From NCBI GenBank assembly GCA_027923505.1, contig BROI01000003.1, positions 372,001-436,000 on the forward strand: 64,000 nucleotides of DNA. Direction: 5' to 3'. The position numbers and the translations under genes were made by a program. The stretch is from Mayamaea pseudoterrestris (taxonomy: Eukaryota). The notes under the pieces were generated by a model. It was not told the origin of the DNA. It ran no database searches and saw nothing but the letters and a program-made list of their open reading frames with translations. Below, one piece after another: positions 39,474 through 64,000 of the stretch; position 1 is the stretch's first letter; each line of letters starts with the position of its first letter.

Positions 39474-40241
39474 ACAAGATATGGAAGATTTCCTGCAAGA
39501 CTCGCAGGTTGGCGCTGTTGCCTGTTGTGAATTCGAACACTGACTGAGAACTAAACCAAACTGAGAATGCCAAATAAATGCTATATCAAAGCGCTAACAA
39601 AATTTACCGGTAGTGAGTTTACTTTGTTGTCATACTTGCTCAATGGCCAACCAGTACGCCACTTTGTAGGTCCAGGCGCTAGTGATCTGCTGCTTGAGTT
39701 GGCACTATGCTGTATAAATAAACTAGGAGATCTTGCAGATATCTCATTCTTCGTTTGATAAATAAGAAAGCATCACACATACTGTGCTTGGATGTTGTAA
39801 GCGCTTGACATGCTGTTCTGAAAGGTGATACATAGCTAAGTTGATGGCGCGCCCGCGTGTCCAGAAATCGGACATGCTCATCGAATTTCGATCAGCAAAC
39901 TACGCCCCTCCGTGACGTGTTGATGTCCGCGCTTCGGACACTCCTTAGAGAACTCTCGGGAAGGCAAGCTAATCATGGATTATAGAGGCTATTACAAGCG
40001 GTCGCAGAGAAGTTCATTGCGGGTTCTGCGGTTCTTGGCTTCAATTGCCATGACGCGCCGGCCAATCGGAACGGAAGGTTCCATCCGGTTTGGACGAGTT
40101 CTTTGGCCAAAGCTGAGCGCCCTTCTTCCGCGTCGAAGACCTGCGTGCCCCTTGGAATAACTTACACAAATAATCGAATCGACTCAAGTCCTTCGAGTCG
40201 CCAAGTTGTTATTACTTTATTGACGATAGACTACCACCAAC

Positions 40242-41413
40242 ATGCCTCCATTCACAGAAGTCATGGGTTTGGACAATGAAAGCTTTAGCTCGGCGTTGAG
40301 CGTTAGCGGATCCGGCCACCTCCGACACAAGATATTTCCAGACCGAATGCTAAATTTCCAACAATTCGGCTCTATCGAAACCGACACTGAAGCTACAAGG
40401 GACTGCTACATAAAAGAGTTTGCCCTTGCGCTGCAACAACTAGAGGACCAAGTCGAGCACCTCCTGGAGACGCAGAGTGTGGACGAGTCAATCGCTTCCT
40501 CATCTCCAGTCAACGACGCGTGTGTCTACAGTCTACGTCACAAGATGCCTCATTTTCTGCAGAGAGCATCCTTACTCATTGATCAGCTCAAGAAGCAAAA
40601 GGTCAATGAGCTCGTGGTGGCGAAACTTCGCTGCAGCTTTGGCATGGCAGCTGCTGTCCAATTTTTGGACACGATCGAGTACGGTCTAGCTTGTCCAGCC
40701 CGAGAAATCATTGATGAGCGATTGTCCATGCTACTTGACGAGGTGGCTCGATTGACCGACAATGACCCGTATTTCAAGTTTCGCGTTTCCAACTGGGCCG
40801 CACCTTCGCTCAAGCTGGCCTTTGACTTGCCGGCAAGCAAACCAGCGACAGTTGACATTCGAAACAGCTTCCCCATTTCCGTCACGGTTGAACCAATTGT
40901 CACATACCCGGCGGAAGATTTGTACAGTATATATAAAGAGCTTTCCAAGCCTCGCATTTGTTCAGTGGAGATTGAGCAGTGCAAGCACACTCGTCTCGGG
41001 TTTGCCGAGGGCGCTGGCGTCATTGGAACGGCCTGCGTCAAGATTCGATTGACGCCCATGCATGGGCAAGGTTCATCAAACGACCTTCGTTCCTCTTCTT
41101 GGGGATCAAGGCACAGTCTTGACAAGATTGTCATCAAAGAGGCGAGGGTGTAAGTGCATCATCATTGTCGGATGGCATGATATCTGGCTCAATTTGTCAA
41201 TCGAAACTAACGCACGTCCCAATATGCATCTGCTTTCTTCTAAGCATTCAAGAGAACTCGTATCCGCCGAAACCTCGCACTGCAGTTGATCTTTACACGT
41301 CGGAGGGACACGGCGACCCGGGCGTTACCATTACACTTATCATCAAAACTTGCGAAACTGAGCATGGCGAATCACCCAAGCTAAGCATTGGCTTGTCTTT
41401 GGCCACGCTTTGA
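40242..41413 (+). CDS. Hypothetical protein, 2 exons (40242-41149, 41245-41413)
   Basis: The 303-aa ORF ends inside a GTAAGT donor. An ACTAAC branch site and TTCTAAG acceptor join it in frame to ...VIQENSYPPKPR...LATL*. Confidence 0.65.
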
Positions 41414-41831
41414 CTGAAAATGTGTCAGGCGCAGCTGTTGAAGAGATGATGTATATCTCTGCTCACCTGTACTTTCGCCCTTCCATGCATTGCCATCCGC
41501 TGTACATCCTATAGCCGTCACTACTGGTCGCAGCCTTACGTTAAGAGCGCTCACAGCCAAATCATCATTTAATATTTAGTTTCACTGCTACTTACCTAGC
41601 ACCATGTTGTATTTCATCTCCAGTTCTTTGCACTGCTAAATGAAAGGACCGAAAAAGTGTGTAGCGTTTGAGCGTGTGTTGGTGCGACAAATCTTGCTTT
41701 GATTGCCTCGCACACCGCGCAGCACGACTGCGTCGCCACCATGGGCGCGTATCTCACATTATTCTTAGCTTTGCAACGAGCAAGCCACCCTGCTTGTTAT
41801 TAGAGGCGTTTGACGAGTAATTCGATTAATC

Positions 41832-42839
41832 ATGCGCTTCAAGGCCAAGCTTGTTCCCGAGCAATTGTCGCTACTGAGCCAGCTCGTCGTGCCACTCGCT
41901 CGCATTGCTGGCTCCTCCACGGAAGGCTGGACGAAGAATGGCAGCGTCCTTTCCATTGACAACAATCATTTGCGTATTTGCGTCAAGGGAAGATCGAATG
42001 ATACAGAAGACATTCGATGCTTCGCGGAGCTTGTCACTAAGGATGGCATCTTTTTGGACTATCGCATCGAGAGTGCAGCTGAAAACAATGCCATTGTCAT
42101 GGAGGTGGATCTAGCACAGTTCAAGGTGGCACTTCAGTCCCTTGCCAGCGGCGGAGGAAAGTCATCGTCTGCAGATGCTAATGCAAATCACGCTCTTGAT
42201 TCATCGTTCATGTCGACCATTATCCATATCAAGCTCGCCAAACGAAACCAAATTCCGTGCCTCTGCTTTGATGCAATCACCCAAGGTTCGATTCATGTTT
42301 ACTATTCACTCCCTGTTCGTATTCTACGACCATCCGAAATGCAACATTACCAACCTCCGCCGATTAATGTAACTGCAAGCATGCTCCAGTTGCAACTGTT
42401 GCGCGACAAGCCGCTCAAACCCGTGCTGGAAGGCTTGCGGCCGCTCAGCAACACCGTCGTGCTGGAGGCAACGGCGCAGGGAGAATTGACCGTGACGGTC
42501 GATACGGATGGCGCCATGATTCGAGCTTTTTACAGTCAAATGCCAGTTTTGGAAACGGCGCATGCGCAGCAGCAATATGGTAATGAACAAGTTCCTTCAT
42601 CGGCGCAGCAGCAGCAACAAGGGTCGAATGCGACTCCAGCAATGGTTCGCGTCAAGCTTGATACCAAGAAACTAGTTGCATGCTTGCAGTGGCAGTGGTC
42701 CATGGTTTCGTCGGCTCGCATTTGCTTGCTGGAGAATGAAATGGTCATTCTGCATGTCCATCTTTATCCGCGGCAGGTTGGTCAATTATCGTATTACATT
42801 CCGGTCCAGTATCTCTCTGCTGAAGGATACGATGGATGA
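41832..42839 (+). CDS. HUS1: Checkpoint clamp (9-1-1) subunit HUS1
   Basis: MRFKAKL, IFLDYRIES..NNAIVMEV, IKLAKRNQIPCLCF, LPVRIL, A..QGELTV.V and LSYYIP match the Hus1 PCNA-like pattern. Confidence 0.85.
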   Translation: MRFKAKLVPEQLSLLSQLVVPLARIAGSSTEGWTKNGSVLSIDNNHLRICVKGRSNDTEDIRCFAELVTKDGIFLDYRIESAAENNAIVMEVDLAQFKVALQSLASGGGKSSSADANANHALDSSFMSTIIHIKLAKRNQIPCLCFDAITQGSIHVYYSLPVRILRPSEMQHYQPPPINVTASMLQLQLLRDKPLKPVLEGLRPLSNTVVLEATAQGELTVTVDTDGAMIRAFYSQMPVLETAHAQQQYGNEQVPSSAQQQQQGSNATPAMVRVKLDTKKLVACLQWQWSMVSSARICLLENEMVILHVHLYPRQVGQLSYYIPVQYLSAEGYDG

Positions 42840-47484: not shown

Positions 47485-47524
47485 TTAATCACAAAGCAAT
47501 TCACTTAATCACAAAGCAATCCAC
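47485..47524 (+). repeat. 20-bp direct tandem duplication upstream of the PI4K start
   Basis: TTAATCACAAAGCAATTCAC followed by TTAATCACAAAGCAATCCAC (one mismatch). Confidence 0.85.
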
Positions 47525-47574
47525 TTGAACAAACAATATACTCTCATATCAGCAGCTGAAGTTACTTGCCCACC

Positions 47575-50460: not shown

Positions 50461-52320
50461 TTATGACTGTCTCCGCTCATCAATCGCGGCCAAGGCTTCA
50501 GTGACTGTTGACGCTCCGCTTGTACGAATTCGATGAATCTGCGAAAAGATATTCTCTCCAATAAAACGTGCCTTGTGGGCGAGGTGACAAGCAACTTCCA
50601 CAGCTGGTACAAGCATTAGTGTCTCGACTTTCTTCTTCTTGTCTCCGGCTTCGACAACATTTTTCTTCATATCTGGTGCGTCTCTTGCTATGTGCTGAAT
50701 CTGCTGGATGTCCATCTCGAATGTTCGCAGATCGACGCCTTGATGGTGCAGGAAAAATAGCATGCGCTGCACATGCGCGTCACCAGGACGATAATGACCA
50801 GAATGCGGATAGAGACGAGTAAGATAACCTTCATCGTCCGTAACAAATATACCAGCAGCGGCCACTGCCTTTCCACCAAAAAATGAGCTGTGATGAAAGC
50901 GTTGCTTTGACTTTCCTTGCACTGACGTAATTTTTTGGGCACCATACATAACATTGTCGCGCAGCACAAAGATCCATCCGTCTGGCCCAGTTTGCACTGG
51001 ATCGCCATCAACATCAAAGACTCTGCATCTACCTTGATCATCGGACGAGAAACTGAGAGCATAACCTTGCGTCGTTTCATCGTTGCTGATGTATAGCACC
51101 GTATCAGAATCGAGAGCACTGCGCGGACACTCCGAAAGATTCGGCAGAGGCTGACCAGCAGCTTCCCCTTTGCTATCCAGCCACTCAAAGAACATGTTGT
51201 ATGGGCAGCCGAGTGATTCCCAATGTCGGTAATACACTCGCAAATGCTTTCCATAACGGTGGTACTTGTCGCTCACCTCCAGCCAGGCCTTGCGGTGCAA
51301 CTGCGCATAGTTCCCCCGATCCGTCCCCCGCTTGACAATGTTTGGAGGGTTTGCTCGAATCCCCTTGTATACAAAATCTTGCTTAATCCCCTGGTCTGGA
51401 AGCTTGTCCATGAATCCTCGCTTCGTGGCGCTTCCGAACGGCCAAGCCGGTCGAGACTTTCGTCGAACCGCCAGATCTTTTAGTGGCGTTTGGACTTCAA
51501 AGGAAGTGGCTGGTAATGACTCGCCGCTACTTTGACCGCGCGACTGAACACAAACAATATTCTTGTGATTGGATTCGTCGTCAGAGTCATCGTCATGAAC
51601 GTCGTCTTCAATGATGCGTAGCTGGTCTTCCTCGTTGGGATGCATTTCACCGACGGCTTCGGCAAACTGCTTCGCCTCATTGATCCGTCTAGCAAATGAT
51701 TCCGTACGTCTGTGCAAAAGGTTTGATTCAGCTTCCTTGTCATGACTAGTCGCCAAGGTGAATTCACCCGACAAGGCACCCTTTTTGTATGTTTCGTCAC
51801 GCTCCCCATTCTCCAAAGTTGCTGCATCTTCGGAACGAGCAATAGTCTTATTGTTATCACGAGACGTCGGCGACTTGTAGTGCGAACGCTTGCTAATAAC
51901 GCTACCATTATGTTCAAAGCCATCGACGTCATAAATCAGCATTGTTTCAGAAGATTCAAATCGAGTCGAGTCCTGCTGGTCAACATTAAAATCATTGACT
52001 GCGAGCGCCTTATTCTCACGAACAGAAACTTGCAGCTCATAGGGACTGTCTAGACTATTCGACGTCGTGAAATGAATGCTATCGAGCAAATCTGCATCTT
52101 GAGGCCTCATTAGCAGCGAAACGTCGTGAACGGATGGTTCATGCTGATGGTGTCGAGTTGTCGTTCCATTCGAACAGTTTGGTTGTACTTGTTGCTGCTG
52201 CTGAGAATCTTCGTCGTGTTCTTCATCAAGAAGAAAGAATGATTCTTCTCGATGCATCTCGGACAATGGGGGCTCATGATACGAATCTAAAAGGCTCGAC
52301 GGATGGACCCGAGATTCCAT
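50461..52320 (-). CDS. IQM-family (plant calmodulin-binding IQM-like) protein
   Basis: WLEVSDKYHRYGKHL..YY, FFEWLD, WIFV, FHHSSFFGG.AVAAAG and PHSGHYRP. Confidence 0.82.
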   Translation of the reverse strand: MESRVHPSSLLDSYHEPPLSEMHREESFFLLDEEHDEDSQQQQQVQPNCSNGTTTRHHQHEPSVHDVSLLMRPQDADLLDSIHFTTSNSLDSPYELQVSVRENKALAVNDFNVDQQDSTRFESSETMLIYDVDGFEHNGSVISKRSHYKSPTSRDNNKTIARSEDAATLENGERDETYKKGALSGEFTLATSHDKEAESNLLHRRTESFARRINEAKQFAEAVGEMHPNEEDQLRIIEDDVHDDDSDDESNHKNIVCVQSRGQSSGESLPATSFEVQTPLKDLAVRRKSRPAWPFGSATKRGFMDKLPDQGIKQDFVYKGIRANPPNIVKRGTDRGNYAQLHRKAWLEVSDKYHRYGKHLRVYYRHWESLGCPYNMFFEWLDSKGEAAGQPLPNLSECPRSALDSDTVLYISNDETTQGYALSFSSDDQGRCRVFDVDGDPVQTGPDGWIFVLRDNVMYGAQKITSVQGKSKQRFHHSSFFGGKAVAAAGIFVTDDEGYLTRLYPHSGHYRPGDAHVQRMLFFLHHQGVDLRTFEMDIQQIQHIARDAPDMKKNVVEAGDKKKKVETLMLVPAVEVACHLAHKARFIGENIFSQIHRIRTSGASTVTEALAAIDERRQS

Positions 52321-52495
52321 GGCTGGGCCCGAGGCGGATGCAGCAAGTGAAATGCGCCTCGAGCGAATTTATGGAGGCACCACCAAAAGCGTGAGCTCGC
52401 GTCGCGCGGATAATGTCGGTCCGGTACTCACAAGGGTTCGGGTTTTCCGACGCGGATCGCTTTTCGTTCCACTCCTTCATTCATTTTGAGCCCCA

Positions 52496-56469: not shown

Positions 56470-57462
56470 TTACTGTTCAGATTTCAAGTTCAAATAGGTA
56501 GCCATTGTTTCTTCGGGTTCCCAGTTCACATTTATCCTGGTCAACCTTTTCAAAGGTAGCTGCTTTTGCTGCGCCATGCTTCGTGCCGGCACAATGTTTC
56601 TTAGTTGTCGCGTCGACATGACGCCCTCGTAGCCAGAGAGCATTGATGCCTTCTTGACTGCTCGTAGATTGGTCGGAACATCCTCGCGAATGCGCCATTC
56701 CAAGGGTCCGACAGGAACGGGCCCTTTGGGTCGAACGTCAACTACATAGGATAGCAAACTTTCAAGCTGACCCATATCATTGACTCGTTCCTTCACATGC
56801 CATTCGCCGTCAAACTCATTGAAGAAGAAACTGTCAGTGCACTTGAATGTAATTCGTCGCTCCTCCTGTCCTTGATTGGCGTTCAGTAACGCTTCCTGCA
56901 TGTCCATTGTGACGGATGCACCAAACTCGAAACCAATAATCTTCTGCGCTCCCTTTTGATATAATCGACAGTTATACTGTCCATCCCCAGGCTCACCGCT
57001 TGCTCTTGCTTGCAATATTTTCGACTCGACCAAGTTTGGAACATGCACGCTGAGTCGATCATAGTCGGTCAGTATGGCCCACACATCTTGGAGCGGCACT
57101 GGCACGACAATTTCACCGTAGATGCGCCGGCTGTTGGAGGATGTTCGCTCGATGCGGACCGCCACGAGTTCACACGAGTCTTGGTCCGTCGGTTCGGCCG
57201 TTTCCGTGCCTCCAAACCACCATACGTTGAGTGTTGTTGAGGATGCTGATGACGATGTCGTGCGTTGTTGTAGACGAGGTGAAGAAATTGGAACCGAGTA
57301 ACGTGACAGGTCTTGCTTATGTGACCTCTGTTGCTCAACCGATTGTCGTCGCGACGCCGACGGCGAGGTTGGAACGAAGCCGCTCGTGACACTGACTATG
57401 CAGAGAAGCATTACGAAAGGGGCGACGCGAAAGCAGTCCATATCTGATCGTTGTCTTCTCAT
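56470..57462 (-). CDS. Polyketide-cyclase/START (SRPBCC, COQ10-like) lipid-binding protein, plastid-type presequence
   Basis: VWAILTDYDRLSVHVPNLVES, FNEFDGEW, LSYVVDVRP and EDVPTNLRAV; signal peptide plus TSG-FVP. Confidence 0.85.
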   Translation of the reverse strand: MRRQRSDMDCFRVAPFVMLLCIVSVTSGFVPTSPSASRRQSVEQQRSHKQDLSRYSVPISSPRLQQRTTSSSASSTTLNVWWFGGTETAEPTDQDSCELVAVRIERTSSNSRRIYGEIVVPVPLQDVWAILTDYDRLSVHVPNLVESKILQARASGEPGDGQYNCRLYQKGAQKIIGFEFGASVTMDMQEALLNANQGQEERRITFKCTDSFFFNEFDGEWHVKERVNDMGQLESLLSYVVDVRPKGPVPVGPLEWRIREDVPTNLRAVKKASMLSGYEGVMSTRQLRNIVPARSMAQQKQLPLKRLTRINVNWEPEETMATYLNLKSEQ

Positions 57463-57797
57463 TGTTTTGTAATATTATGGCAGCTTTTGTGTCGGTAATG
57501 ACTCTGAGAGGCATCAGGTGCTGTCAAGCCGGAAGCATGGGGATTGAATCACTCGAAGTGGGGAAGAAGGGAGGTCAGCACGATCACAGAAGGTGGAAAG
57601 AAAGGAAGAAACCATCGGTCGTTGAGTGCAACGTCACTCCATTGACACTGAAACTCGGTAAGACACAGCCCGGTACACATACTTCAATTTGACTACAGTA
57701 CCAGTACCGTACCATACCATAGCAAGTGAAACGAGCCAATTGTACCATTCTGCCGAATACTAGCCCCAATGCATAGCCAGCAAAGAGTGGTTGAGAA

Positions 57798-59154
57798 CAA
57801 GTTCTGGTACAGAGGTTGCCTGAATTTCATGGCCCCAGGCTTGTCCACAACTGCCATAACCCACTCCAACAGCCAGAGAGGTATAAATTGATTGCTGGAA
57901 GTTGACAAACATTGTTTCATGATGTGGAAAGTGCAATGCATTCATCATTAGTCCATATAGTCTCCAAGTTCTGCCAGTAGGACCACCTGAATTTTGTTGC
58001 CCCAGGCTTGTCCACAGTTGGTGGCTGCCATGACCTACTCCAATGGCCCGAGAGGTATATCTTGATAGCTTGCAGTTGACAGGCATTGTTACATGATGAA
58101 GAAAGTGCAGTGCATTCATCACTAGTCCATGTGGTCTCCAAGTTCTGCGACAGGGACTGCCTGAATTATGTGTCCCCAGGCTTGTCCACAGTCGGCGACT
58201 ACCAAAACCCACTCCATTGGCCAGAGAGGTATATAATGATAGCTGGCAGTTAACAGGCATTGTATAACAATGTAAATGCATTCATCACTGGCCCATGTAG
58301 TCTCCAAGTTCTGCCAGTAGGACCACCTAAATTTTGTGGCCCCAGGCTTGTCCACAGTAGCTGGCTGCCATGACCCACTCCAATGGCCAGAGAGGTATAT
58401 ATTAAAAGATGGCAATTGACAGGCATTGTCTCATGATGTAAAATGTGCAATGCATTCATCACTGATCCATGCTGTCTCCAAATTCTGCCAGTAGGACCTT
58501 CCAGACTGTTGTGGCCCCAGGCTTGTCCACATTCGGTGGCTGCCACGACCCACTCCAATGGCCAGAGAGTGTCCCAAGGCTTGTCCTCAGTAGCTGGCCA
58601 CCATAACCCACTCCAACAGCCAGAGACGTGTCAATTGATAGCTGGCAGATGACAGGCATTGTTTCATGATGTCAAAAGTGCAATGCATTCATCAATAGCC
58701 CATGTAGTCTCCAAGTCCCATGCCAGAGATTGCCAGCATTTCATGTCCCCAGCTTTGTCAACAGTAGCTGGCTGCCATAACCCACTCCAACAGCCAGAGT
58801 GGTATCAATTGATAGCTGGCAGTTGTTAGGCATTGTTTCATGATGTCAAAAGTGCAATGCATTCATCAATAGCCCATGCAGTCTCCAAGTTCCATTACAG
58901 GGACTGCCAGTATTTCATGTCCCCAGGCTTGTCCACAGTACCTTGCTGCCATAATCCACTCCAACAGCCAGGGAGGTATCAATTGATAGCTGGCAGTTGA
59001 CAGGCATTGTTTCATGATGTCAAAAGTGCAATGCATTCATCACTGGCCCATGTTGTCTCCAACTTCTGTGACAGGGACTGCCAGAATCTCGTGTCCCCAG
59101 GCTTGTCCTCAGTAGCTGGCCGCCAAAATCCATTCCAACAGCCAGGGAAGTGTC
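57798..59154 (-). repeat. 174-bp tandem repeat, left arm (about 8 copies, reverse orientation, more diverged outward)
   Basis: The anchor GCATTC ends at 57943, 58117, 58283, 58457, 58690, 58864 and 59038 (spacing 174 except 166 and 233). It is the reverse complement of the right-arm unit. Confidence 0.95.
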
Positions 59155-59251
59155 TCAGAAGACTGCAATGTGACTGGTGAGAAGTTATCACCATTCTCAG
59201 CCCGCCAATGCCTTGATATTCAATTGTCCCTACAGCAAGCCATGTATACAC
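59155..59251. other. Unique spacer (about 97 bp) at the inversion point of the repeat array
   Basis: TCAGAAGACTGCAATG...CATGTATACAC does not align by eye to the unit apart from its last few bases. Boundaries are approximate (about 10 bp). Confidence 0.8.
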
Positions 59252-62200
59252 GCCTGGGGACACAAAATTCTGGCAGTCCCTGTCACAGAACTTGGAGACT
59301 ACATGGTTTAGTGATTAATGCATTACACTTTTGACATCATGAAGTAATGCCTGGGAGCTGCCAGCTATCAATTGACACCTCTCTGGCTGTTGGAGTGGGT
59401 TATGGTGGCCAGCTACTGAGGACAGGCCTTGGGACACGAAATGATAGCAGTCCCTGTCATGGAACTTGAAGACTGCATGGGCTAGTGATGAATGCATTGC
59501 ACTTTTGACATCATGAAACAATGCCTGTCAACTGCCCGCTATCAATCGACACCTCTCTGGCTGTTGGAGTGGGTTATGGCAGCCAGATACTGTGGACAAG
59601 CCTGGGGACATGAAATGCAGGCAGTCCCTGTCATGAGACTTGGAGACAAAATGGGCTAGTGATGAATGCATTGCACTTTTGCATCATGAAACAATGCTTG
59701 TCAACTGCCAGCTATCAATTGACACCTCTCTGGCTGTTAAACTGGGTTGGCAGCGAGCAACTGTGGACAAGCCTGGGGACATGAAATTCTGGCAGTCCCT
59801 GTCACAGAACTTGGAGACTACATGGGCTAGTGATGAATGCATTGCACTTTTGACATCATGAAACAATGCCTGTCAACTGCCAGCTATCAATTGACGCCTC
59901 TCTGGCTGTTGGAGTGGGTTATGGGAGTCAGCAACTAAGGACAAGCCTTGGGACACGAAATGATGGCAGTCCCTGCCATGGAACTTGGAGACTACATGGG
60001 CTATTGATGAATGCATTGCACTTTTGACATCATGAAACAATGCCTGTCAACTTCCAGCTATCAATTGACACCTCTCGGGCTGTTGGAGGTGGTTATGGCA
60101 GCTAGGTACTGTGGACAAGCCTGGGGACAAGAAATGCTGGCAGTCCCTGTCATGGAACTTGGAGACTACATGGGCTAGTGATGAATGCATTGCTCTTTTG
60201 ACATCATGAAACAATGCCTGTCAGCTGCCAGCTATCAATTGATACCACTCTGGCTGTTGGAGAGGGTTATGGCAGCCACCTACTGAGGACAAGCCTGGGG
60301 ACATGAAATGCTGGCAGTCCCTGTCACAGAACTTGGAGACTGCATGGGCTAGTGATGAATGCATTGCACTTTGACGTGATGAAACAATGCCTGTCAACTG
60401 CCAGCTATCAATTGACACCACTCTGGCTGTTGGAGTGGGTCATGGCAGCAAGCTACTGAGGACAAGCCTGGGGACATGAAATGCTGGCAGTCCCTGTCAC
60501 AGAACTTGGAGACTACATGGGCTATTGATGAATGCATTGCACTTTTGACATCATGAAACAATGCCTGTCAACTGCCAGCTATCAATTGACACATCTCTGG
60601 CTGTTGGAGTGGGTTATGGCAGCTAGCTATTGTGGACGAGCATGGGGAAATGAAATTCCGCCAGTCCCTGTCACAGAACTTGGAGACTGCATGGGCTAGT
60701 GATGAATGCATTGCACTTTGACATCATGAAACAATGCCTGTCAGCTGCCAGCTATTAATTGATACCACTCTGGCTGTTGGAGAGGGTTATGGCAGCCACC
60801 TACTGAGGACAAGCCTGGGGACATGAAATGCTGGCAGTCCCTGTCACAGAACTTGGAGACTGCATGGGCTTTTGATGAATGCATTGCACTTTGACATCAT
60901 GAAACAATGCCTGTCAGCTGCCAGCTATCAATTGATACCACTCTGGCTGTTGGAGAGGGTTATGGCAGCCACCTACTGAGGACAAGCCTGGGGACATGAA
61001 ATGCTGGCAGTCCCTGTCATGGAACTTGGAGACTACATGGGCTAGTGATGAATGCATTGCACTTTGACATGATGAAACAATGCCTGTCAACTGCCAGCTA
61101 TCAATTGACACCACTCTGGCTGTTGGAGTGGGTCATGGCAGCCAACTACTGAGGACAAGCCTGGGGACATGAAATTCTGGCAGTCCCTGTCACAGAACTT
61201 GGAGACTACATGGATGAATGATGAATGCATTGCACTTTTGACATCATGAAACAATGCTTGTCAACTGTCAGCAATCAATTGACACCTCTCTGGCTGTTGG
61301 AGTGGGTTATGGCAGCCAGCTACTGAGGACAAGCCTGGGGACATGAAATTCCGCCAGTCCCTGTCACAGAACTTGGAGACTGCATGGGCTATTGATGAAT
61401 GCATTGCACTTTTGACATCATGAAACAATGCCTGTCAGCTGCCAGCTATCAATTGATACCACTCTGGCTGTTGGAGAGGGTTATGGCAGCCAACTACTGA
61501 GGACAAGCCTGGGGACATGAAATGCTGGCAGTCCCTGTCACAGAACTTGGAGACTGCATGGGTGATTGATGAATGCATTGCATTTTTGACATCATGAAAC
61601 AATGCCTGTCAACTTCCAGCTATCAATTGATACCACTCTGGCTGTTGGAGTGGGTTATGGCAGCCAGCTACTGAGAACAAGCCTTGGGACATGAGATGCT
61701 GGCAGTCCCTGTCATGGAACTTGGAGACTACATGGGCTAGTGATGAATGCATTGCACTTTTGACATCATGAAACAATGCCTGTCAACTGCCAGCTATCAA
61801 TTGACACCTCTCTGGCTGTTGGACTGGGTTATGGCGGCCAGCTACTGTGGACAAGCCTAGGGACATGAAATGCTGGCAGTCCCTGTCATGGAACTTGGAG
61901 ACTGCATGGGCTAGTGATGAATGCATTGCACTTTTGACATCATGAAACAATGCCTGTCAACTGCCAGCTATCAATTGACACCTCTCTGGCTGTTGGACTG
62001 GGTTATGGCGGCCAGCAACTGAGGACAAGCCTGGGGACATGAAATGCTGGCAGTCCCTGTGACAGAACTTTGAGACTGCATGGGTTATTGATGAATGCAT
62101 TGCACTTTTGACATTATGAAACAATGCCTGTCAACTGCCAGCTATCTATTGATACCACTCTGGCTGTTGGAGTGGGTTATGGCAGCCAGCTACTGAGGAC

Positions 62201-64000
62201 CAGCCTGGGGACATGAAATGATGGCAGTCCCTGTCCTGGAACTTGAAGACTGCATGGGCTAGTGATGAATGCATTGCACTTTTGACATCATGAAACAATG
62301 CCTGTCAACTGCCAGCTATCAATTGACACCTCTCTGGCTGTTGGACTGGGTTATGGCGGCCAGCTACTGTGGACAAGCCTGGGGACATGAAATTCTGGCA
62401 GTCCCTGTCATGGAACTTGGAGACTACATGGGCTAGTGATGAATGCATTGCACTTTTGACATCATGAAACAATGCCTGTCAACTGCCAGCTATCAATTGA
62501 TACCACTCTGGCTGTTGGAGTGGGTTATGGCGGCCAGCAACTGAGGACAAGCCTGGGGACATGAAATGCTGGCAGTCCCTGTCACAGAATTTCGAGACTG
62601 CATGGGTTATTGATGAATGCATTGCACTTTTTACATTATGAAAAAATGCTTGTCAACTGCCAGCTATCTATTGATACCACTCTGGCTGTTGGAGTGGGTT
62701 ATGGCAGCCAGCTACTGAGGACCAGCCTGGGGACATGAAATGATGGCAGTCCCTGTCATGGAACTTGAAGACTGCATGGGCTAGTGATGAATGCATTGCA
62801 TTTTTGACATCATGAAACAATGCCTGTCATCTGCCAGCTATCAATTGATACCACTCTGGCTGTTGGAGTGGGTTATGGTGGCCAGCTACTGAGGACAAGC
62901 CTGGGGACATGAAATGCTGGCAGTCCCTGTCATGGAACATGAAGACTACATGGGCTAGTGATGAATGCTTTGCACTTTTGACATCATGAAACAATGCCTG
63001 ACAACTGCCAGCTATCAATTGATACCACTCTGGCTGTTGGAGTGGGTTATGGTGGCCAGCTACTGAGGACAAGCCTGGGGACATGAAATGCTGGCAGTCC
63101 CTGTCATGGAACTTGAAGACTCCATGGGCTAGTGATGAATGCATTGCAGTTTTGACATCATGAAACAATGCTTGTCAGCTGCCAGCTATCAGTTGACACC
63201 TCTCTGGCTGTTGGAGTGGGTTATGACAGCGAGCTACTGTGGGCAAGGCTGGGGACATGAAATTCCGGCAGTCCCTGTCACAGAACTTGGAGACTACATG
63301 GGCTATTGATGAATGCATTGCACTTTTGACATCATGAAACAATGCCTGTCAACTGCCAGCTATCAATTGATACCACTCTGGCTGTTGGAGTGGGTTATGG
63401 CAGCTAGCTATTGTGGACGAGCATGGGGAAATGAAATTCCGCCAGTCCCTGTCACAGAACTTGGAGACTGCATGGGCTAGTGATGAATGCATTGCACATT
63501 TGACATCATGAAACAATGCCTGTCAGCTGCCAGCTATCAATTGATACCACTCTGGCTGTTGGAGAGGGTTATGGCAGCGAGCTACTGTGGACAAGCCTGG
63601 GGACATGAAATTCTAGCAGTCCCTGTCACAGAACTTGGAGACCACATGGGCTAGTGATGAATGCATTGCACTTTTGACATCACGAATCAAAGCCCGTCAA
63701 CTGCCAGCTATCAATTGACACCTCTCTGGCTGTTGGAGTGGGTTATGGTGGCCAGCTACTGAGGACAAGCCTGGGGACATGAAATTCAGGCAGTCCTACT
63801 AGCAGAACTTGGAGACTACATGGGCTATTGATGAATGCATTGCACTTGTTACACCATTAAACAATCTTTGTCATCTGTCAGCAATCAATTTATACCTCTC
63901 TGGCCATTGGAGTGGGTCATGGCAGCCACCAACTGTGGACAAGCCTGGGGACACAAAACTCTGGCAGTCCCTGTTGCAGAACTTGGGGACTACATGGGCT
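59252..64000 (+). repeat. 174-bp tandem repeat, right arm (at least 27 copies, runs off window)
   Basis: The anchor GAATGC recurs at 59490, 59664, 59835, 60009, 60183 ... 63485, 63659, 63833 (171-174 bp spacing). Consensus: GAATGCATTGCACTTTTGACATCATGAAACAATGCCTGTCAACTGCCAGCTATCAATTGACACCTCTCTGGCTGTTGGAGTGGGTTATGGCAGCCAGCTACTGAGGACAAGCCTGGGGACATGAAATGCTGGCAGTCCCTGTCACAGAACTTGGAGACTACATGGGCTAGTGAT. Confidence 0.98.

Follow-up and report, generated by a model that had tools for sequence, protein, structure and literature searches.

Is a tandem array whose units point away from a short centre on both sides a single symmetric element able to fold back on itself, or a satellite that has changed orientation along its length? 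The question is raised by a stretch of 64,000 nucleotides from Mayamaea pseudoterrestris (GenBank assembly GCA_027923505.1, contig BROI01000003.1, positions 372,001 to 436,000 of the forward strand), called here the window, in which an inverted array of a 174-bp unit runs from position 57798 to the end at 64000. The original prediction had described a symmetric structure, either a foldback element or an inverted satellite. The inverted satellite stands, whereas the foldback element is weakened: the arms show no identity in register, the spacer belongs to an abundant repeat, and the junction at the centre appears low-copy. We put at about two in three the probability that the locus is an interstitial, layered island of methylated satellite with one old, low-copy, head-to-head repair junction. 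The array consists of two subfamilies of the 174-bp unit, one older and divergent at both outer ends and one younger and homogeneous inside, and the switch of orientation sits within the younger one.

Two subfamilies in an inverted array

The period and the limits of the arms were obtained with Tandem Repeats Finder and BLAST. The period is 174 bp, and the right arm counts 27.4 copies at 90% matches (Tandem Repeats Finder) up to the window edge, past which the array runs on. With 7.8 units on the left and at least 27.4 on the right, the earlier counts of about 8 leftward and at least 27 rightward copies hold. Going outward from the centre, the left arm is made of a 48-bp partial unit, the full units L01-L03, a unit of 58 bp (L04), the near-full units L05-L08, and, outermost, a stub of 47 bp (L09). 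R01-R27 and then 62 bp of R28 form the right arm. No further copies of the unit were found elsewhere in the window. The parts of the array are as follows.

57798-59154, minus strand: whole left arm, 1357 bp, 7.8 units (7 near-full, one deleted to 58 bp, two partial ends)
57798-58584, minus strand: outer left arm, older ("edge") subfamily; partial L09, L08-L05, and the deleted L04
58527-58584, minus strand: L04, a 58-bp unit with a 116-bp deletion, where core-type DNA is joined to edge-type DNA at the 5-bp microhomology GACAC
58585-59154, minus strand: inner left arm, core subfamily; L03-L01 and the 48-bp partial unit (unit positions 127-174)
59150-59251, plus strand: centre, a fragment of about 100 bp of a second repeat, overlapping both arms
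59248-64000, plus strand: whole right arm, 27 full units and 62 bp, ended by the window edge
59248-63764, plus strand: core of the right arm, 26 units of the core subfamily
63765-64000, plus strand: visible part of the outer right arm, edge subfamily; R27 and the partial R28

The subfamilies were separated by a tree of the 34 near-full units, which left out the partial L00, L04, L09, and R28. Twenty-nine units (L01-L03 and R01-R26) form the core group, with a mean distance of 9%, each of them being 3-9% from the consensus. The remaining five, L05-L08 and R27, form the edge group, with a support of 100/97. L05-L08 are 16-21% from the core consensus and 16-20% from one another, and the distance between edge and core units is 18-24%. 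Out of 22 diagnostic edge states, each of L05-L08 carries 11-19 and R27 carries 10, against 0-1 in any core unit. This includes the inner left units L01-L03, which the tree places among the core units of the right arm. The visible piece of R28 shows 2 edge states in the 13 diagnostic columns that it covers. Of the 19 states of R27 that are rare in the core, L05-L08 share 13, for which a random-site model that ignores mutation hot spots gives a binomial P of about 9e-8; 7 of 11 transversions are shared as well. The variants common to the outer ends are those of an older subfamily kept at the array edges.

The original prediction went further and took the outermost right copies to mirror the outermost left ones, on the basis of three tracts. 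All three are indeed present at both ends: the 39-mer at 63902-63940 matches 58010-58048 with 1 mismatch, the 21-mer at 63880-63900 matches 57876-57896 with none, and the 14-mer at 63797 matches two left units (L06 and L08) with 1 mismatch each. However, the 39-mer fits L07, L05, and L04 (1, 2, and 3 mismatches), and the 21-mer fits L08. Since the matches scatter in this way over different left units, the mirror is not positional, and what remains of the claim is the sharing of variants between R27 and L05-L08. R27 differs from each of these four units by 15-21%, which is roughly their own mutual distance. Around the centre, the facing core pairs L01/R01, L02/R02, and L03/R03 rank 26th, 18th, and 21st of 26 in likeness; facing units are no more alike than random pairs. 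Because facing units are not favoured and R27 lies so far from each of L05-L08, the arms, as far as they are visible, do not represent a recent inverted duplicate, nor have they been kept alike by arm-to-arm conversion.

These distances bear on the possibility of a true mirror, in which the left arm would be an inverted copy of the array's own far end (an incipient foldback, mobile or not) and the whole island would have long terminal inverted repeats. The edge subfamily does lie at both outer ends in mirror orientation, the far right end is beyond the window, and a contig of one public run (X1, see below) resembles L06: it carries that unit's 8-bp deletion and otherwise differs by about 5%. 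But this contig could be a mere allele or paralogue, R27 is close to none of the outer left units, none of R01-R26 stands out as the match of L01, L02, or L03, and ahead of R27 a 58-bp unit is absent. We consider such a mirror quite unlikely.

A few further observations concern the units themselves. The deletion of L04 runs between two GACAC words and lies exactly at the change from core to edge subfamily in the left arm; the corresponding change in the right arm, from R26 to R27, is in phase and without deletion. In the core unit R12 (61155-61328), a short stretch has letters that are otherwise of the edge type and are shared with R27 and L08; R12 is the nearest neighbour of R27 (14.4%), and the stretch is possibly a gene-conversion tract. 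Recent duplicates, with up to 97.7% identity, are found within R06-R25 (R09 and R25 differ by 2.3%). Near-duplicate pairs at 96-98% occur at lags of 3, 4, and 16 units (R17/R20, R07/R11, R09/R13, R08/R24, and R09/R25, within 60462-63590), which suggests block duplications. A regular higher-order repeat was considered and rejected: the mean distance is flat, at 0.074-0.096 over lags 1-16. The left flank had seemed by eye to resemble decayed 174-bp units, and this was also dropped: 311, 239, and 870 of 1000 shuffles score as well, and nhmmer gives no hit.

The centre and its junctions

The arms were said to surround a unique spacer of about 97 bp. This length does not hold for the unpaired centre, which is 141 nt because the arms begin at different positions of the unit. 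Compared with each other, the arms are identical in 458 of 522 columns, i.e. 12% of the columns differ.

The word "unique" does not hold either. We compared positions 59107-59373 (267 bases) with the contigs of four public runs (X1-X4), which represent at most 3 samples and 2 studies, and one of which may be the source of the window. The depth of a contig is not a copy number, contigs drop detail, and 32 of 2523 pieces were listed individually. X4, from the same study as X1, has the exact letters of the window at a depth of about 3; it is possibly carry-over and does not count as independent support. Within the window, the spacer has no second copy. In the three other runs, dozens of variant contigs cover it and continue elsewhere. 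The summed contig depth over 59152-59241 is 4.4e4-2.6e5 in X1, 7e2-1.1e4 in X2, and 2.5e3-3.0e4 in X3, and that of the 174-bp unit over 59260-59340 in X1 (2.1e5-5.5e5) is of the same order as the spacer's. Alternative letters at 59184/59194/59217 are carried by 57/47/54 contigs in X1, 24/24/36 in X2, and 32/33/26 in X3. Past the limits of the spacer, matching contigs lead into one other sequence ahead of 59150-59151 (at least 10 in X1, at least 6 in X2, and at least 6 in X3) and continue behind 59251 (at least 5 in X2 and at least 11 in X3). Given the depth, the variant contigs, and the loose ends that continue, the spacer is a fragment, about 100 bp long, of a second abundant repeat. Its overlap with the left arm is GTGTC (59150-59154), which was probably six bases long ancestrally, and that with the right arm is ACA (59248-59250), so that the microhomologies at its joins are of 3-6 bp.

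One X2 contig jumps back by 53 bases (from 59202 to 59150) within spacer-type sequence, hinting at an internal duplication or a tandem structure in the second repeat family. A scan of metagenome contigs for an exact motif of the spacer gave 0 matches. By eye, the spacer had also resembled a decayed 174-bp unit; we rejected this, as 149 and 272 of 1000 shuffles (two strands) score as well and nhmmer gives no hit here either.

The junction between the spacer and the right arm is covered without mismatch by one contig per run among the pieces listed (59155-59281 in X1, 59150-59277 in X2, and 59159-59277 in X3). The depths of these contigs are 576, 11.5, and 20.7, respectively. Relative to the depth summed over the spacer family, this is about 0.1-0.2%, and the values of X2 and X3 are within the range of other single contigs listed (4-15 and 19-36). 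These values point to a low-copy junction and not to a dispersed family.

The units around the centre speak for the age of the junction. Core-type units abut the centre on both sides, right up to the junctions, and the orientation switch is thus younger than the core subfamily itself. Next to the centre, six units are on average 8.0% from the consensus vs 5.2% for the other 23 core units (Mann-Whitney P=6e-4), with 4.5 private substitutions vs 1.2, and R01-R03 are more diverged than the other core units of the right arm. Because these adjoining units have diverged while R06-R25 hold near-duplicates, the junction predates the latest turnover and acts as an internal edge.

The same data bear on whether the junction is real. 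Two satellite loci could have been wrongly joined, or a fold-back chimera assembled: inversions within satellites are a known assembly error (PMC5411766), and the left junction is unbridged among the pieces listed. A chimera at the level of reads, a concern of the original prediction, is nevertheless unlikely with arms that are offset and differ as much as they do. Moreover, the exact contigs over the junction of spacer and right arm come from three runs, two samples, and two studies (one of which may be the window's source), contigs of X1-X3 show the letter that the window has at 59149, and an excess of private changes on both sides of the junction is what an old, real boundary would have. 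An artefact is the least probable of the explanations weighed here.

Foldback transposons, of which Drosophila FB is one, were the comparison proposed at first. A non-autonomous element of the FB/Tetris/Rehavkus type would be mobilised in trans and would carry unequal numbers of tandem subrepeats in its terminal inverted repeats, and the locus does have long inverted arms of tandem units in unequal number (7.8 vs at least 27.4) around a non-coding middle. Still, the left arm stops in a truncated unit and has no recognisable outer domain, the flank at 57400-57797 has no second match in the window (the right end lies outside it), the visible arms lack register identity, and, as judged from the 32 of 2523 pieces listed, the junction at the centre appears low-copy. 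The 31 open reading frames (ORFs) of the window that were scanned against Pfam include no transposase family; two ORFs at 40230-42839, shadow frames, and frames shorter than the length cut were outside this set. Tetris has inverted arms of tandem subrepeats, too, and seeded a satellite; it is also marked by a non-repeated outer flanking domain, target-site duplications of 8-10 bp, and dispersed copies (PMC4079207). In the visible part of the locus, arm identity is at background level. We find a foldback transposon highly improbable.

A recurrent macro-dyad, as in the centromeric satellites of Tribolium, would make the orientation switch a built-in and possibly functional feature, perhaps centromeric. 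Two inverted subarrays of unequal length do resemble the TfSat01 arrays (PMC12581902), and a 174-bp unit is nucleosome-sized. Against this, the junction depth of about 0.1-0.2% of the repeat depth in three runs does not fit many copies, although the test is weak because contigs drop detail, and the fragment at the switch is foreign and unrelated to the unit, as the shuffles above indicate. The low-GC signal of mapped diatom centromeres is absent as well: the lowest GC in any 100 bp of 57798-64000 is 37% (the array as a whole has about 48%), and none of the 100-bp boxes in 57001-63000 is at or below 32%, the Phaeodactylum-type centromere criterion. This explanation is very unlikely.

The spacer contains an imperfect dyad centred on 59184, with 12 of 15 pairs, and the family's common letter at 59194 would restore one more. 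This level is reached by 54 of 2000 shuffles and 16 of 565 genic tiles, which makes it modestly unusual. We rejected the dyad as the cause of the inversion on this ground and also because the flanks are not mirrored around it. Overall, it is unlikely that the island is a giant inverted repeat built of satellite and mirrored unit for unit (foldback-like), or a recurrent macro-dyad with a dyad-bearing fragment at its turn. If either were true, it would be a satellite-based chromosome element of a kind that we did not find for diatoms in the literature searched.

The layered satellite with a single repair junction, which we prefer, could have formed as follows. Unequal exchange and gene conversion would have homogenised the interiors of arrays, stranding older units at the edges. 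Once the younger subfamily had spread, a break may have been repaired by microhomology-mediated joining or template switching, processes that leave short microhomologies and a captured foreign fragment, and the repair would have fused two oppositely oriented array pieces through such a fragment. The junction would then have become an internal edge: the units adjoining it were no longer homogenised, while turnover went on in the middle of the long arm. The left arm may stem from the fusion of two separately layered arrays of this family after breaks in their cores, in which case a reciprocal tail-to-tail junction should exist at another place. Alternatively, an array end may have been copied in inverted orientation; a close counterpart of L01-L09 would then be expected outside the window, perhaps just beyond its end. 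The present data do not separate the two routes, and the second is kept open because of the X1 contig with the L06 deletion.

Several points weigh against this scenario. A simple local inversion would put the old subfamily beside the centre, and the old units are found outside; the scenario therefore needs either a second array or an inverted duplication, and no such partner is seen. The left junction (59150-59154) is bridged by none of the 32 pieces listed of 2523. For the right junction, a rule of 31 letters on each side is passed by X1 alone, X2 and X3 reaching 30. Two X1 contigs (place 59324) have the 8-bp deletion specific to L06 (58186-58351) with about 2 other letters in 39, and their consensus departs from L06 at 2 of 30 letters; they could represent a closer counterpart of the left arm, which may be the unseen right end, or a paralogue, or an allele. 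Finally, the methylation of the island is something that we infer from base composition only.

CpG loss and possible function

The observed/expected ratio of CpG is 0.09-0.19 in all parts of the array, including the spacer, vs 1.07 in 1-57700. In one dinucleotide column, CA is found in 20 units and TG in 14, with no CG left. This depletion is consistent with long-term CG methylation, and diatom repeats are known to be CG-methylated by DNMT5 (PMC9998398). The likely role of the island is that of passive CG-methylated heterochromatin, neither a mobile nor a transcribed element. The longest stop-free frame of the right arm has 115 codons, the longest array ORF of the left arm matches no Pfam family, and there is no credible Rfam hit in the array, the sole match having an E-value of 0.62 and lying below its cut-off.

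The arms share five perfect mirror tracts of at least 21 nt around the centre, and an RNA crossing the centre would fold into a stable hairpin if the region were transcribed. The segment 58900-59460 folds at -196 kcal/mol, a trivial outcome of inverted arms that is no evidence of function, and the spacer's own fold is unremarkable (z -0.7). Cruciform extrusion, which had also been proposed, sets requirements on the loop and on the pairing of the arms, and with a loop of 141 nt and 12% mismatch it is unlikely.

Known systems and the surroundings of the locus

The closest parallels are found outside diatoms. The Responder (Rsp) satellite of Drosophila melanogaster has a homogenised centre, rarer variants at its ends in a mirrored arrangement, and a flip of orientation at a fragment of a foreign repeat. 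It differs in having about 1050 units and a G5 Jockey fragment at the flip, whereas about 35 units are visible here and the fragment is about 100 bp of a second abundant repeat (PMC5411766). TfSat01 and TfSat03 of Tribolium freemani have inverted subarrays of kilobase size, with unequal numbers of monomers and with monomers cut short where the orientation switches. In these satellites, the inversion segments are centromeric and exist in hundreds of conserved copies, and TfSat01 lacks a foreign insert, while the present junction is apparently low-copy and has one (PMC12581902). In human alpha satellite, a younger, expanding core lies between older monomer clades, which intermingle on trees regardless of their side, but the scale is of megabases and the centromere is active, and here the two old layers point in opposite directions (PMC2729386). 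The centromeres of Phaeodactylum tricornutum (10.1101/096016) and Fistulifera solaris (10.1101/2021.11.10.468027) are, like this island, gene-free interstitial diatom DNA; they are short, low in GC, and without satellites, as opposed to a tandem array at about 48% GC.

The literature searched, in which most subscription papers were outside coverage, contained no account of diatom satellite arrays or of diatom foldback elements. The main text of PMC9724779, on M. pseudoterrestris, lacks the words tandem, satellite, centromer-, and methylat-, and the word "diatom" does not occur in the part available of a centromere atlas preprint (10.64898/2026.09.17.752431). The 174-bp satellite family seems undescribed in this literature. 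Within 6 kb, one can read here the retention of old units at edges, the capture of DNA at a repair junction, and a loss of homogenisation next to an inversion. Flies, beetles, and primates have already provided these principles, and the locus is one more example rather than a new mechanism. Its importance would grow if the right end, beyond the window, proved to mirror the left arm or if CENH3 were bound to the island.

The unit is abundant beyond the locus. The 267 bases compared are covered by 1177, 744, and 572 contigs in X1, X2, and X3, numbers that are to be taken qualitatively since contig depth is no copy number. The runs carry variants of the unit that are absent from the window. One further variant class, at place 59306, is found in 14, 9, and 8 contigs of X1-X3, and a short motif taken from its X1/X2 consensus has 0 matches in the window, which implies other subfamilies of the 174-bp family elsewhere. 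Scans for exact motifs of the unit gave 0 matches in metagenome, viral, and prokaryote genome contigs.

The remainder of the window, positions 1-57500, is gene-dense, with about 49% GC and ordinary eukaryotic genes. The named relatives of one neighbouring protein are from pennate diatoms, at about 46-51% identity. The array is interstitial, as the contig does not end at it, and no tandem of telomere hexamers was found anywhere in the window. The nearest flanking gene is the following.

56470-57474, minus strand: gene with a START/polyketide-cyclase-like domain (PF03364, E 3.5e-11)

It reads away from the array, with its first ATG about 335 bp off the array edge. In the 300-bp windows starting at 57451 and 57601, before and at this edge, the CpG ratio goes down to 0.69 and 0.49. 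This drop, over 57451-57900, may reflect methylation spreading toward the promoter of the START-domain gene, or plain intergenic composition. Farther away, the ORF at 50461-52368 (minus strand, 635 aa) has no Pfam match; the C-terminal half of its product may resemble plant IQM calmodulin-binding proteins. A 20-bp unit is repeated 2.1 times at 47485-47526, directly upstream of a PI3/PI4-kinase gene.

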